From positions 64,001 through 128,000 of the forward strand of contig JAYFMW010000017.1 of NCBI GenBank assembly GCA_042408215.1: a stretch of DNA of 64,000 nucleotides, given 5' to 3'. This stretch comes from Microcoleus sp. GTDB lineage: Bacteria > Cyanobacteriota > Cyanobacteriia > Cyanobacteriales > Microcoleaceae. Made by a program: the position numbers and the translations under genes. The notes below the pieces were generated by a model. The model saw only the letters and a list, made by a program, of their open reading frames with translations, had not been told where the DNA came from and searched no databases. Of this stretch, positions 5,591 to 24,108 are shown one piece after another (the first letter of the stretch is position 1; every line of letters starts with the position of its first letter).

Positions 5591-6430
5591 TTAACTGTGA
5601 AACGGAATAGTTACTAAAGGCAAAAGCGTTAAAACCAGCCAACTCCAAAACCACTTATTCGGTTTTGGCGACGTTTCCGGTTCTGCTAACAGCGCCTCTA
5701 TTCTCTCTCCCAATCTATTTGGCAACCCGACAGCACCAACCACGCAAGCTATCTCAAAATAGTGGTGCGGATAACTCGCTACCAACAGCAAAGCTTCTGC
5801 TAATAATAAAGAATCTACACCCGCCGCAGCTTTGGCATCAGCCCGCAATTCCCGCAGTGTTAATAACTCTTCCCACAAAGCCTGGGTATTCGGTAGCCAA
5901 GCTGTGATTTGCCGCAGCAATCCCAGCCCAAAAAAACCGAAGGTATCGCGATAATAGTAGTGCGCTTGCTCGTGGGCAATAACGGCTTCAATGTGTACTT
6001 GATCCAAGGTTTTTAACAACCCCGTACTGACTACAAATTCTGGATGCCAAAAGCCAATTAGAGCAGAAAATAAAGCGGGTGTCTCCATAATTCTGACGGT
6101 GGTTCCGGCTATTTTTTGCTGAGGATAATTGCGAATTTTATTGAGAAATAAACTACCGTCTACCGCTAGCTTGATGCCGGAAAATACTGCTTTTCCTAAA
6201 AAGGCTGCGGCTAGCAAATAGCTCAACCATCCGTCCCACAATCCTACCATTTGTCCTTTAGTTCCCATGCTAAAAACTGCGGCGGATGTTACGAGCAATA
6301 GCAGCGGAGGAAATAGAAATAATAAGAGCGATCGCTGCCAGCGTTGGGCCCAATTTCCTGTAGGATGAGACCAGGTGAGTCTGAGATAGTAACCGAGACT
6401 TAGTGCAACTATAATTAGGATTAAGTGCAT
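5591..6430 (-). CDS. petP: BlaR1/M56 membrane metallopeptidase (PetP-like)
   Basis: HEQAH zinc motif, ELRAD, N-terminal TM helices; translationally coupled to a BlaI-family gene. Confidence 0.8.
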   Translation of the reverse strand: MHLILIIVALSLGYYLRLTWSHPTGNWAQRWQRSLLLFLFPPLLLLVTSAAVFSMGTKGQMVGLWDGWLSYLLAAAFLGKAVFSGIKLAVDGSLFLNKIRNYPQQKIAGTTVRIMETPALFSALIGFWHPEFVVSTGLLKTLDQVHIEAVIAHEQAHYYYRDTFGFFGLGLLRQITAWLPNTQALWEELLTLRELRADAKAAAGVDSLLLAEALLLVASYPHHYFEIACVVGAVGLPNRLGERIEALLAEPETSPKPNKWFWSWLVLTLLPLVTIPFHS

Positions 6431-6852
6431 TATTTTTGCTCCTCCCTAGCTTGGCGGACAGCTTGAATGCGAAGGGAAATTTCTTCTAATTGTTCGACGG
6501 TTGCTTGGTCAAGACTGTCAGCAAATCCTGCTACAATATCGGGGTTTCCTACTGCTAGGAATTTCTGCAAGCGATCGTAAGCAAAAAGTGCTTGAGCTTG
6601 TGGGCGAGAAACTAATGGTTGCCAAGTGAAAGTCCGCTCTGTTTTGTCGCAAGCTAGCCAACCTTTGTCTGTCAAGCGACGCAGCACTGTTGTGACTGAG
6701 GCGTAAGCTAATTCGCGATCGGGATCTGACAAAATGCGATCGTGTACTTCTTTAACTGTAGCACAGCTTAGTTCCCAAACAATATTCAAAATCTCTGCCT
6801 CCAAAGGGCCGAGAGAAAGTTGTTTCGGACGATAATTTGGTAGAGGGTTCAT
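6430..6852 (-). CDS. petR: BlaI/MecI/CopY repressor (PetR-like)
   Basis: LGPLEAEILNIVW...ELAYASVTTVLRRLTDKGWL winged helix; paired with an M56 peptidase. Confidence 0.8.
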   Translation of the reverse strand: MNPLPNYRPKQLSLGPLEAEILNIVWELSCATVKEVHDRILSDPDRELAYASVTTVLRRLTDKGWLACDKTERTFTWQPLVSRPQAQALFAYDRLQKFLAVGNPDIVAGFADSLDQATVEQLEEISLRIQAVRQAREEQK

Positions 6853-7003
6853 AGGCAATTAACAATTCAAAATGTGATTTTTCCTTCAAATATTAATTGA
6901 CTTTATACTCCATCGCCAATTCTCTACTTTAGAGTACAGCCATTCTGGATCGCTCCGTGTTTATTTTAGAAATATTTAATCTAAATCATCCAAATATCAA
7001 GTT

Positions 7004-7047
7004 TGACAGTCTGTCATTTGACAGGAGCAGCACCTCAGTGTCAGAAT
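7004..7047 (+). promoter_or_regulatory. Operator palindrome TGACAGTCTGTCA next to a -35 TTGACA, N18, CAGAAT; predicted mbnP promoter
   Basis: 7004-7023 TGACAGTCTGTCATTTGACA; near-identical copy at 24089-24108 on the minus strand. Confidence 0.75.
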
Positions 7048-7103
7048 CTAGATTTTGTGAGTAATTTTTGGATGATTGACTTCATTTCATCTCAGATTAA
7101 CCT

Positions 7104-22004: not shown

Positions 22005-22338
22005 GTTTTGTATCCTTTAGTCAGTTCAAGAGATGTTTGTTTGCACGAGTTCAAGAATTGACACTGGTTATAATATAATGTAAAAATTCGTGACAATTTG
22101 TAGCTCAAGCAACTTTTAAGGTTTTATACAGATTTGGGTTGTATCGGAATGATTTAACCGCAGAGAACGCAGAGAACGCAGAGAAAGAGAAGAGAGAGAC
22201 GAATACAGGACGATGAAGAGCGGATATGATATTACCTAACTTTGGGTGGGGGCGGGTTTACGAGATTGTGGATTTTAGGTAATTATTGTTTGTGGAACCC
22301 GCCCCTACAAGATTTATGTTTATTGACGGGAGATGATA

Positions 22339-22812
22339 TTATCGAACGGTGACTGTATAAGTCAGTTTAAAGGGTTTAAAATTAGCTGCGGTTTTCGCTG
22401 TTCCGCTGAGTTCTAATTCATAAATGCCAGCCTTGGGAAAGACAATATCAGCTCCCGGAATGCCTTTGTACCGCTCGGCAGATATTGCTTTTAAAGGCGG
22501 TTCCATCAGCGCTGTATCCCCCTCTTTATAACCTTTGGGATAGACCGCTAACTTGCAATTACACTGCTCTAATGGGATAATTTGACCGCCCCTGCGGGTG
22601 AGTGAAAACCAGACTCTCGCAGTCTCTCCGGCGCGGGGATTGTGATTGGGTTCTAGGTGAAAGGTGGCGGCGACATCTCCCGATACTTCGACTTCGTGGG
22701 CTAAAACTGAAGTTGAGTTGAACGGCGGTATGGGAAATATTCCTGCTTCTATTAGCAATCCCAAGAAAACTAACAATCCTAAACTTTTACTTTTGTTTGA
22801 CTGGGGAAACAT
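22339..22812 (-). CDS. Secreted hypothetical protein with a predicted mature N-terminal His (possible metal binder)
   Basis: Hydrophobic leader, VLA|HEV cleavage-like site, HLEPNH, CNC; overlaps the upstream gene's 3' end. Confidence 0.6.
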   Translation of the reverse strand: MFPQSNKSKSLGLLVFLGLLIEAGIFPIPPFNSTSVLAHEVEVSGDVAATFHLEPNHNPRAGETARVWFSLTRRGGQIIPLEQCNCKLAVYPKGYKEGDTALMEPPLKAISAERYKGIPGADIVFPKAGIYELELSGTAKTAANFKPFKLTYTVTVR

Positions 22813-23992
22813 AGAAATTATCCAGAGATAAAAGTGACCAAAATAAGCGCGATCGCACAAACATAACTAACAGCGTAACCACCGCTAACAGGGCTGTCAG
22901 CAGTTGATTGTGCAATTTCCATTCAAAACCGCCGAGATAGCGAGAACCGATGAGTGCAGTGTGAAGGTTGCACAGCAAAAAAGCGGGAACACTTAACAGG
23001 TGAATTTGCCGCCACCGCTTCCCTAAATATTCTTGAAGGCGATCGCAACTTGTAACCGCCGCCGGTATCATCAACAGTAGCGCCACTATCCCAGCTATCA
23101 TCCCTAACTGATGCTGCGGCAACATAAAAGATAGGGCGTCAAAATTCCATTGCAGTGTATGATCTAGCATATGAAATGTGTGGGCAAGGGCGATCGCAAA
23201 CCCTCCGACACCCAAAGCCCGACGGTAGCGCAGCAGTTGCGGGAAAAACTGACTAACCGGACGCGCGATCAGTGCTAGCATCAAGCATAGTAGGGATGCG
23301 TGACCAGTCACATCAACCATTTCATCGGTTCGCAGTAGAGTAATAATGCCGATCGCAATTGTCACCCAACCACCAGCGCGAAAAAGTTGACTGCGTTTGT
23401 GGGCGCTCAATCTACCAGCAAAAAACCCCACTCCCAGCATAGTTGGCAGCGTACCCATTCCAAATGCAAACATCGTTGCGGCACCCAAAATCGGGTTTCC
23501 GGTTTCCGCTGCTTTAATTTGCGCTACATACAGGAAACCGCAGGGAATTAAACCCCAAAGCAAACCCAAAGCTGCTGGTATCCACCAACTTTTTTGAGTT
23601 GAAATCTTAGTCATTGCATTGCTGATGCGATCGTGGGAAACTGGATGCAGCAATGGCAAACGCGGCAACAAATCTGGTTGAATTTGTACCAATCCAAACC
23701 AAACCAGCATCGTACCAATCAGAATAGCGATCGCCCGTCGCCATCCGCTACCAGTACCAGCCATTTGTCCGCCAGCAATTAATACCGAACCCACTCCGCC
23801 AATTACAGCACCTACTAAAGCATAAGCAACAATTCTTCCCAAGTTTAGTAGCAAATGAAAGCGGAAAGAAGCTAATTTATCTTTACCCGCAGCCGACAGG
23901 GAAAACGCCACTGTCAGCGGGCCGCACATTCCCGCGCAGTGTCCGAAACTGCCGAGAAATCCTAAAGTGCTAATTAATACTAAGTCTAGCAT
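22787..23992 (-). CDS. DsbD_2/TauE-like membrane protein fused to an MsrQ-like ferric reductase TM domain
   Basis: GHCAGMCGP and GLIPCGFLY; C-terminal RRALGV, LAH, LGKRWRQIHLL, NLH heme-ligand pattern. Confidence 0.8.
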   Translation of the reverse strand: MLDLVLISTLGFLGSFGHCAGMCGPLTVAFSLSAAGKDKLASFRFHLLLNLGRIVAYALVGAVIGGVGSVLIAGGQMAGTGSGWRRAIAILIGTMLVWFGLVQIQPDLLPRLPLLHPVSHDRISNAMTKISTQKSWWIPAALGLLWGLIPCGFLYVAQIKAAETGNPILGAATMFAFGMGTLPTMLGVGFFAGRLSAHKRSQLFRAGGWVTIAIGIITLLRTDEMVDVTGHASLLCLMLALIARPVSQFFPQLLRYRRALGVGGFAIALAHTFHMLDHTLQWNFDALSFMLPQHQLGMIAGIVALLLMIPAAVTSCDRLQEYLGKRWRQIHLLSVPAFLLCNLHTALIGSRYLGGFEWKLHNQLLTALLAVVTLLVMFVRSRLFWSLLSLDNFYVSPVKQK

Positions 23993-24064
23993 TTTGAGTT
24001 AGTAGTCAGCAGTCATTAGTCCTTGGTTTTTTTACTGCCGATCGATGATTAATGATTGCTGACT

Positions 24065-24108
24065 ATAATGACTGTCGGCTATCCTTTTTGTCAAAAGACA
24101 GCCTGTCA
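24065..24108 (-). promoter_or_regulatory. Second copy of the operator/promoter motif
   Basis: Minus strand TGACAGGCTGTCTTTTGACA-N18-CATTAT, same architecture as 7004-7047. Confidence 0.75.

Follow-up and report, generated by a model that had tools for sequence, protein, structure and literature searches.

Two putative PetR boxes point to a probable copper-acquisition regulon in a Microcoleus with no detectable plastocyanin gene

We identified two PetR-type boxes in a Microcoleus genome, one ahead of an mbnPH operon and one ahead of an operon led by a DsbD_2-reductase fusion, with a PetR/PetP-like regulator pair adjacent to the first. It is likely that PetRP drives a copper-starvation acquisition regulon here, independent of the plastocyanin switch, a reading in which we infer the binding, its direction, the copper response and the transport.

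Results

Two 20-mers, at 7004-7023 on the plus strand and 24089-24108 on the minus strand of the window (the whole 64-kb stretch of DNA analysed), differ at 2 of 20 positions, as the initial annotation described. They belong to a 21-bp element (7002-7022; 24110-24090) in which a TTTGAC direct repeat flanks a GAC-N5-GTC palindrome. Box 1, TTTGAC-N5-GTC-N-TTTGAC (7002..7023, +), has no mismatch to the petJ-type PetR activator motif, and box 2, TATGAC-N5-GTC-N-TTTGAC (24089..24110, -), has one. Both are intergenic with a start codon about 100 bp downstream, and each includes a TTGACA hexamer that an 18-nt spacer separates from CAGAAT (7018-7047, +) or CATTAT (24094-24065, -), again as first described. 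The former would be a weak -10 element of the mbnPH promoter (7042..7047, +), with a preceding TG, and the latter the predicted -10 element of the reductase operon (24065..24070, -); -10-like hexamers are enriched 17-18 nt downstream of such boxes. The sites had been placed just upstream of the -35 element, but the second repeat itself forms the -35 hexamer of each promoter (7018-7023; 24094-24089), so the boxes overlap it and are not merely upstream.

A consensus search of the window allowing up to 3 mismatches recovered only these two sites, with 0.03 expected by chance, and none of 100 shuffled windows reached two. Across the 7.4-Mb genome, matches with 0-1 mismatch and an intact core occur only at boxes 1 and 2, and the two sites with 2 mismatches both fall within ORFs. 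Box 2 has the best matrix score in the genome (33.9 bits), followed by box 1 (32.0 bits), a site within an ORF (23.7 bits) and the best of the reversed genome (22.5 bits); the matrix was built from petJ-upstream sites chosen with the published pattern and is thus not independent of that pattern. Boxes 1 and 2 are very probably PetR sites. Neither of two candidates for a third site was accepted, one at C28:100949 with a spacing of 6 instead of 1, the other at C6:365441, which scores 16.6 bits and lies ~430 bp ahead of a porin gene. The genome also holds 19 intergenic GAC[AG]-N3-[TC]GTC cores, which are candidate sites for repression, and a single GAC-N5-GTC 435 bp ahead of ctaC. Two metatranscriptome runs, available as contigs, gave small word shares at low depth that may derive from DNA, and were uninformative on transcript start, strand and level.

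The regulator pair is encoded on the minus strand. [quoted passage not shown] The start of the petP-like gene (5591..6430; 279 aa, PF01435/PF05569) overlaps the petR-like stop, and its product is a membrane metalloprotease with an HEQAH (HEXXH) motif and without the C-terminal beta-lactam sensor domain. No other PF03965 gene and no other BlaI/protease pair occur in the genome. Met55 and Met61 of the protease lie in the TM2-TM3 loop and are both kept in 20/20 aligned homologues; their spacing of 6 recurs in genome G026 (M53/M59), while the PetP pair is given as M53/M58 in the excerpted text of Garcia-Canas et al. (bioRxiv 10.1101/2020.07.31.226407). The petR-like protein is identical at 80/140 positions to its homologue in G026, whose petJ is labelled Synechocystis and which serves as a proxy for comparison with Slr0240. 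Homologues of petR are divergent to a boxed petJ at locus L025 and near a boxed petJ at L018. Identity as a CopY/TcrY repressor was rejected (TIGR02698, 38.3 bits against a cut-off of 121.95; no C-terminal Cys motif). By sequence, the pair is a probable member of PetR/PetP whose petE/petJ-switch output is missing here.

Both boxes face metal-related operons, as had been noted. Behind box 1, mbnP (7104..8075, +) encodes a secreted WxW copper-binding family protein (TIGR04052, 310.5 bits, cut-off 140) and mbnH (8308..9486, +) a MauG-like di-heme enzyme (TIGR04039, 532.3 bits, cut-off 362.85), with a likely ATG at 8308 in a frame open from 8029. MbnP aligns to PDB 7L6G (E 5.7e-36), its WNW falling on the WNW of that structure, and MbnH matches 6E1C best (E 3.1e-121). 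MbnPH lacks its customary upstream partners here, since neither a TonB barrel nor mbnB (no TIGR04159 match) was found in this 99.98% complete genome.

Behind box 2, the first gene (22787..23992, -) encodes a DsbD_2 and Ferric_reduct fusion (PF13386 and PF01794, the latter at 39 bits versus 28). In alignment A1 the invariant residues are H18-C19-x-x-M22-C23 and C151 in the DsbD_2 part and H271, H278, H294, H331 and H344 in the heme-b part. An alignment-based model (pLDDT 62) has a C-terminal half that resembles Dcytb (Z 13.5), cytochrome b561 (Z 13.4) and STEAP1 (Z 12.9), with fold matches at Z 12-13.5, rmsd 3.1-4.7 and 152-172 residues aligned. On this model the half is a ferric-reductase-like (STEAP/Dcytb/MsrQ) heme-b four-helix domain, its substrate only putative. 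Foldseek with the same model returned nothing at E<=0.001, a PDB sequence search with alignment A1 gave no match, and the DsbD_2 half, which is poorly modelled, had no fold match; a single-sequence fold (pLDDT 49) was set aside. DsbD_2 clusters in the Atlas at 0.89 are a lead only.

An exported 157-aa partner protein (22339..22812, -) overlaps the reductase stop. It has no Pfam or NCBIfam match, and a weak YtkA-like resemblance (Atlas 0.90, 12% of members) is a lead only. Its gene follows the reductase gene in 17/17 genus relatives, and in G084 it has a perfect box of its own. Farther along are cydA (20562..22004, -) and cydB (19540..20553, -), which encode the copper-free cytochrome bd oxidase (PF01654/PF02322); cydAB may be a read-through member of the box-2 operon. 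No box was found at cydA in the genus, among 7 and 16 upstream regions from overlapping sets.

No plastocyanin was found above cut-off in this genome or in 20/20 genomes of the genus (Microcoleus/Tychonema by protein labels); a cupredoxin at C30:671159-671653 was rejected at 34 bits against 87.85. [quoted passage not shown] The two best genome matches are the two boxes themselves, petE was not found, and petJ is unboxed, GAC-N5-GTC being absent from 3.1 kb around psbV-psbV2-petJ. With no detectable petE and an unboxed petJ, the activator-type regulon of this genome seems to consist of these two operons only. Across the order, the petJ box is present in 26/29 genomes with both petR and petE versus 2/28 with petR and no petE, so that the prediction that loss of petE entails loss of the petJ box was upheld in the genomes checked.

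The boxes are conserved with the regulator, in counts over related genomes, which are kin and not independent samples. Box 1 is kept ahead of mbnP in 8/8 genus loci with an intact petR-mbnP, and box 2 ahead of the reductase gene in 7/7 relatives with intact petR versus 1/9 without. The petR gene is absent in 9/18 genus relatives and broken in 1, and the reductase gene is retained in all nine that lack petR. Decayed copies of box 2 occupy the same position in G007, G002 and G140, and in G009 a single deletion takes the 5' part of petR, box 1 and the mbnP start, with box 2 also absent. Near-perfect boxes occur in G017 and G147, where no petR was found, and G014 (92% complete) has petRP with neither the mbnPH nor the reductase target found. 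Among petR-bearing relatives the motif positions are invariant despite divergence in the flanks and the N5 spacer and target proteins of only 67-84% identity.

The association recurs in other families. As a positive control, G026 gave two sites, ahead of petJ and of a small membrane protein gene, matching the published regulon. Outside the genus, mbnP has a box with 0-1 mismatch in 4/9 cases and with 2-3 mismatches in 3 more. The fusion is found in 68/151 genomes; outside the genus the reductase gene or operon head is boxed in 14/61 (reversed control, 0/62), while a search of both strands out to 1.5 kb found no box at 44/61 reductase genes, and the gene is therefore often independent of PetR. 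In several genomes (G024, G036, G104, G152) the same box precedes both petJ and the reductase operon, which ties reductase genes to the copper signal. Among 90 first genes behind boxes across the order are 12 for TonB receptors, 3 for ExbB, 3 for PepSY-TM proteins and one for a porin; cydA also appears behind the same box elsewhere in the order. Three of the 12 TonB receptors were compared with OprC (TIGR01778), with no match. Conservation, co-loss with petR and this recurrence support the original proposal that the adjacent PetRP pair co-regulates both operons.

Discussion

In Synechocystis sp. PCC 6803, PetR/PetP is Slr0240/Slr0241, and the excerpted text of Garcia-Canas et al. gives both GAC-N5-GTC and its longer version at petJ-type activator sites, TTTGAC-N9-TTTGAC, a regulon of only four genes (petE, petJ and slr0601-slr0602), and the statement that petRP occurs almost only alongside petE and petJ (bioRxiv 10.1101/2020.07.31.226407). 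A 2026 review names only petE and petJ as targets. The regulon that the initial annotation called undescribed is thus new in its targets, whereas the motif is already known, its GAC-N5-GTC core having been correctly given there; no extended PetR regulon was found in the literature searched (open-licence PMC and bioRxiv). The Microcoleus pair resembles that of Synechocystis in its BlaI/CopY factor, its overlapping M48/M56 protease with HEXXH and Met pair and without a sensor domain, and an operator over the -35 in which TTTGAC-N9-TTTGAC contains GAC-N5-GTC. It differs in its targets, mbnPH and the DsbD_2-reductase operon; petE and a GLTT/slr0601-like gene were looked for in this genome and not found, and petJ is unboxed. 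In contrast to the published co-occurrence, 28/117 petR-bearing genomes have no petE match.

We infer the on-off mechanism by analogy with Synechocystis. When copper is scarce, PetP would be inactive and PetR would accumulate, occupy the boxes over the -35 elements and activate two weak promoters; once copper is available again, PetP would destroy PetR and both operons would shut off. MbnH may convert the WxW tryptophan of MbnP to kynurenine, enabling periplasmic Cu(I) binding by MbnP. The heme-b domain of the fusion may reduce Cu(II) while its Cys/His/Met membrane domain handles Cu(I), assisted by the partner protein. The single aa3-type cytochrome c oxidase would be the likely copper sink, with possible co-induction of cydAB to provide a bypass that needs no copper. 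We propose that once the lineage lost plastocyanin, cytochrome c6 was constantly needed and the petJ box was therefore lost, PetRP being retained for a second job in copper acquisition.

It is possible, though unlikely, that low copper induces both operons through PetR at the boxes but that their products import no copper and serve instead to shift envelope and respiration to a heme-based, copper-sparing state, through thiol-redox chemistry or cytochrome c maturation by the fusion, peroxidase chemistry by MbnH, and bd replacing aa3. DsbD_2 takes its name from cytochrome c biogenesis, the fusion's other domain is similar to MsrQ, this genome has no detectable TonB receptor, and cydAB lies directly downstream of the reductase operon in 16 genus relatives, with boxes within 450 bp in 9/23 cyd loci outside the genus. 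However, MbnP retains the WxW of a structurally shown copper site, the box elsewhere precedes the TonB receptor, ExbB, PepSY-TM and porin genes counted above, and in the genus the region upstream of cydA is conserved in its own right, whether or not petR is present.

Distinctly less probable is a regulon in which PetR represses at the boxes and detoxification is induced by copper, or in which PetP, deprived of plastocyanin, responds to a different metal or signal. Repression is the usual role of BlaI/CopY proteins and the box overlaps the -35, but geometry and sequence equal those of the experimentally activated petJ promoter, petE-type repressor sites lack the direct repeat, the Met pair and HEXXH of PetP are intact, and the targets resemble uptake rather than efflux. 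We give very little credence to boxes and petRP being functionless relics of an ancestral cluster, decaying since plastocyanin loss. The absence or breakage of petR in genus relatives and the boxes that persist without it in G017 and G147 would fit such decay; against it, the motif is invariant among petR-bearing relatives despite diverged targets and flanks, boxes decay where petR is lost, and petR without petE is common (28/151 genomes, in several families). Chance similarity, or the dispersed repeat against which the initial annotation had cautioned, can practically be dismissed: the genome holds 452 copies of the loose core and the pattern at 1 mismatch has a background of ~1.8 matches per genome, but full boxes number just two over 7.4 Mb, both intergenic and conserved across families, and the shuffles, genome scan and relatives refute it.

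An acquisition regulon under PetRP has parallels elsewhere. MbnPH bind or release copper in other organisms, as excerpted sources describe (PMC11951088, PMC13729199). The operon here shares gene order, the WxW and scores above family cut-offs with the MbnP/MbnH pair from the methanobactin clusters of methanotrophs (PDB 7L6G, 6E1C; PMC11951088, PMC13729199, PMC3621798, in excerpt), but differs in having no detectable mbnB or TonB barrel and in its putative control by PetR instead of MbnI/R. Our literature search found no cyanobacterial MbnPH case. In Proteobacteria, TBDT, PepSY-TM and MbnPH genes form copper-linked operons, and CruR heads copper-downregulated ones (PMC9426467, in excerpt); the same kinds of cargo stand behind PetR boxes across the order, although CruR is a post-transcriptional uORF and control here would be exerted by a protease-degraded activator. 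By analogy only, Chlamydomonas CRR1 is also a copper-deficiency activator that switches on cytochrome c6 (PMC7896320, in excerpt). Unlike PetR, CRR1 is an unrelated eukaryotic factor. Its regulon also includes copper importers or uptake genes.

We suggest, tentatively, that PetRP may be a general copper-starvation regulator of cyanobacteria for which the plastocyanin switch is optional. The box would then mark the genes of high-affinity copper import (TonB receptors, ExbB, porins, PepSY-TM proteins, DsbD_2-type reductases, His-rich periplasmic proteins and MbnPH), with a second copper-sparing swap, bd for aa3 in respiration, in some lineages, and Microcoleus would represent the regulon stripped of its switch. 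The cyanobacterial copper import system is stated to be still unidentified in the excerpted Synechocystis report (bioRxiv 10.1101/2020.07.31.226407), and the 21-bp box yields a short, testable list of copper-uptake candidates. From it, both the uncharacterised DsbD_2-reductase fusion and MbnPH in organisms other than methanotrophs would gain a first regulatory context, and an acquisition regulon would explain why PetRP is retained in lineages that have no plastocyanin.

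Two PetR-type promoter boxes

The two 20-mers that the initial annotation had paired, at 7004-7023 (+) and 24089-24108 (-), are identical at 18/20 positions, and the GAC-N5-GTC site that it proposed agrees with the PetR core given in the PetRP preprint (bioRxiv 10.1101/2020.07.31.226407). The preprint also describes activated petJ promoters as carrying a TTTGAC-N9-TTTGAC direct repeat centred on -35. Box 1 (7002-7022, +), which precedes mbnP-mbnH, matches this petJ-type activator motif without mismatch, and box 2 (24110-24090, -), before the DsbD_2-reductase operon, with one. 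Both have TTGACA followed after 18 nt by CAGAAT or CATTAT.

A genome scan with the core required covered the 7.36-Mb Microcoleus sp. genome (G000, with the window at C17:64001-128000; 99.98% complete, close protein relatives labelled Microcoleus/Tychonema) and returned one site at zero mismatches, one at one, two at two (both within ORFs) and 12 at three. A matrix of 23 distinct petJ-upstream sites from other genomes, which were chosen with the published pattern so that the matrix refines the pattern and is not independent of it, scored box 2 at 33.9 and box 1 at 32.0 bits (training sites, 24.5-34.9); the next-best genomic match, within an ORF, reached 23.7 bits and the reversed genome at most 22.5. 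Of 129 distinct sites scoring at least 24 bits across the fetched loci, which include kin, 74 are followed by an nAnnnT hexamer at 17 nt and 53 at 18 nt; the counts do not exceed 4 for 14-16 nt and are 23-24 for 19-20 nt. This enrichment argues that the sites are promoter boxes, and boxes 1 and 2 are very probably PetR sites.

The petR-like gene (6430-6852, -) is the one PF03965 gene of the genome, and 80/140 residues of its product are identical in the homologue of genome G026. The overlapping start of the petP-like gene (5591-6430, -) opens an M48/M56 protease with HEQAH and no sensor domain, in which two Met are kept in 20/20 aligned homologues. A pattern search of G026 gave two sites: one lies upstream of a petJ with the label Synechocystis, the other upstream of a gene for a GLTT-like membrane protein of 116 aa. 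These genes parallel the published petJ and, putatively, slr0601. The name PetP also denotes an unrelated cytochrome b6f subunit (PDB 7R0W title), and name searches mix both. A promoter-like TTGATA-18-AATATT (7000-6971, -) faces petRP. Its start lies 2 bp away from box 1, and PetR may therefore act on its own operon as well.

Products of the boxed operons

MbnP and MbnH score above family cut-offs and match PDB 7L6G and 6E1C, respectively. According to the cited papers, Cu binding is supported by an MbnH-dependent kynurenine in a WxW motif (PMC11951088), Cu-methanobactin accumulates in mbnP and mbnH deletions, suggesting a role in release or uptake (PMC13729199), the pair is distributed well outside the methanobactin producers and is frequently found beside TonB receptors (PMC3621798), and Cu-linked proteobacterial operons are populated by TBDT, PepSY_TM and MbnPH-like genes (PMC9426467). 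Neither mbnB nor a TonB barrel was found in G000, which has several porins and one heme-copper oxidase. In the reductase, HCxxMC and C151 of the DsbD_2 part are invariant, as are five His of the heme domain. The model of this domain is similar to Dcytb, cytochrome b561 and STEAP; by this likeness the fusion would reduce Cu(II). The most likely reading is that PetRP activates a copper-acquisition regulon during copper starvation. A copper-sparing role that does not involve uptake is an unlikely alternative.

Boxed genes beyond the genus

Among 151 genomes of the order, mbnP occurs in 12 and the reductase gene in 68. Nine mbnP loci lie outside the genus: two have a perfect box (G115, and G153, where petRP is likewise divergent), two have one mismatch, three have two to three, and two have none. 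Reductase upstream regions were scored at 62 loci, excluding G000 and five relatives counted in the genus set; the 61 outside the genus gave a forward box in 14, a reverse box alone in 3 and none in 44 (reversed control, 0/62). Forward boxes often stand before an operon whose first gene encodes a His-rich secreted protein. This family (L086, L090:3243-3746, L109, L113, L115, L135-L139), without a Pfam match, is a candidate periplasmic Cu chaperone.

A site-first set combined 53 perfect sites among the matches listed (179 others exist) with 39 eye-picked one-mismatch sites with intact core. Behind them were 90 distinct first genes, 29 run against Pfam and the others assigned by BLAST cluster: petJ (29), TonB-dependent receptor (12), His-rich secreted (9), TPR (7), GLTT (6), DsrE (4), an unknown family (4), PepSY-TM (3), ExbB (3), reductase (2) and 11 genes seen once, among them mbnP, the 157-aa exported partner of the reductase, a porin and a cbb3-like subunit I. 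Among the matches listed, 35/36 genomes with a perfect site carry petR. The pattern matched 292 times against 204 for its reversed control in petR+ genomes, and 37 times against 64 in genomes lacking petR, so one-mismatch matches alone carry much background.

Cbb3-like COX1-family subunits, not found in G000, lie behind perfect boxes at L119:371-1852 (G067) and L158:1559-3019 (G001) and are 90% identical across two families. Copper-shortage induction of a heme-copper family protein would be odd. For boxes 1 and 2, which match the motif of activated petJ promoters, repression by PetR, or response to another signal, is improbable.

An unnamed secreted family of 410-510 aa behind perfect or near-perfect boxes (L092, L094, L126, L128), one member of which has a weak Phenol_MetA_deg (beta-barrel) match, is a candidate outer-membrane Cu channel. 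Good boxes without a clear ORF behind them (L153/L171, G001:C45; L181, G014:C78; L161/L175, G016:C189) possibly serve small RNAs or small proteins; those of G001 and G014 share an intergenic context ~400 bp before a conserved gene.

Conservation within the genus

Box 1 precedes mbnP at 8/8 genus loci with intact petR-mbnP (G000 and seven others), with variable N5 and diverged flanks. mbnP is present in 8/9 petR-bearing relatives vs 0/9 petR-less ones, the genes being linked and hence not independent. The reductase gene is found in 17/18 relatives, and box 2 (at most one mismatch) in 7/7 with intact petR vs 1/9 without (G017, its petR absence rechecked by family). Decayed copies of it remain at this position in G007, G002 and G140, and it is missing from G009, where a 582-bp deletion has removed box 1 together with the 5' part of petR and the start of mbnP. 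That the window's boxes are relics is very unlikely: boxes are kept with petR and tend to decay where it is lost. Coincidence is next to negligible, as a window search at up to three mismatches found no further match to the 20-mers (0.03 expected; 0/100 shuffles reached two).

The G009 junction (L028:1-420, G009:C859) joins the mbnP start region to the petR 3' half, a natural loss-of-regulon allele or possibly an assembly artefact. In G014 (92% complete) petRP is present and neither target was found. In G001, G011 and G013 the mbnPH and reductase operons form one ~8 kb cluster, with mbnPH close to cydBA; in the window, ~10 kb of kinase genes (9478-19323) part mbnPH from cydBA and the box-2 operon. 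These, a PAS histidine kinase and a Ser/Thr-kinase/AAA/GAF kinase in two overlapping, apparently frameshifted ORFs (17011-19323 and 13842-17063), are not part of the system. A gene at 4123-5481 (+), with ETR1-like N-terminal and PAS domains and no kinase output, resembles a truncated ethylene-receptor-type sensor.

Boxes at cydA

The cydAB genes start 334 bp after the partner gene. The genus cydA upstream region contains no box and is conserved with or without petR, so a separate promoter is likely; read-through from the box-2 operon may also occur. Of 94 cydA matches, 30 were fetched and 23 outside-genus loci examined, and 9/23 had a box of at least 15 bits within 450 bp (4 forward, 5 reverse; control 0/30). 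Forward boxes lie at 82 bp in L283 and L287, and reverse ones in L265, L269, L275 and L276; a divergent DsrE gene accounts for one reverse box. Both G121 and G137, where the box is forward, lack petE. PetR-like boxes at cydA promoters in both orientations suggest a respiratory copper-sparing switch.

Apparent uncoupling from plastocyanin

The regulator and motif are already known. Neither these targets nor the uncoupling from plastocyanin turned up in the open literature searched or in excerpts of the reviews PMC13421787 and PMC12292863, the commentary PMC7896320, PMC9252766 and PMC12382314.

Searches of G000 with Pfam and TIGR02656 and a motif scan of all six frames found no plastocyanin, and none scored above cut-off in any of 18 genus relatives (two only 74-83% complete) or in G140. 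A genus-conserved secreted cupredoxin of 164 aa (G000:C30:671159-671653, -), without a box, was rejected as plastocyanin and is a possible Cu sink. GAC-N5-GTC is absent from 3.1 kb around petJ of G000, which sits behind psbV-psbV2.

In the 151-genome sample, petR occurs in 117, petE in 95 and petR without petE in 28. Thirty petR+/petE- genomes (27 of the sample and three genus relatives) gave 28 petJ matches, and a box stood at 2/28 best matches; every third petR+/petE+ genome (30/89) gave 29, with a box at 26/29 (16/19 outside the matrix training set). The distribution of the box thus obeys a regulatory logic, in which petJ loses its box once there is nothing to switch to.
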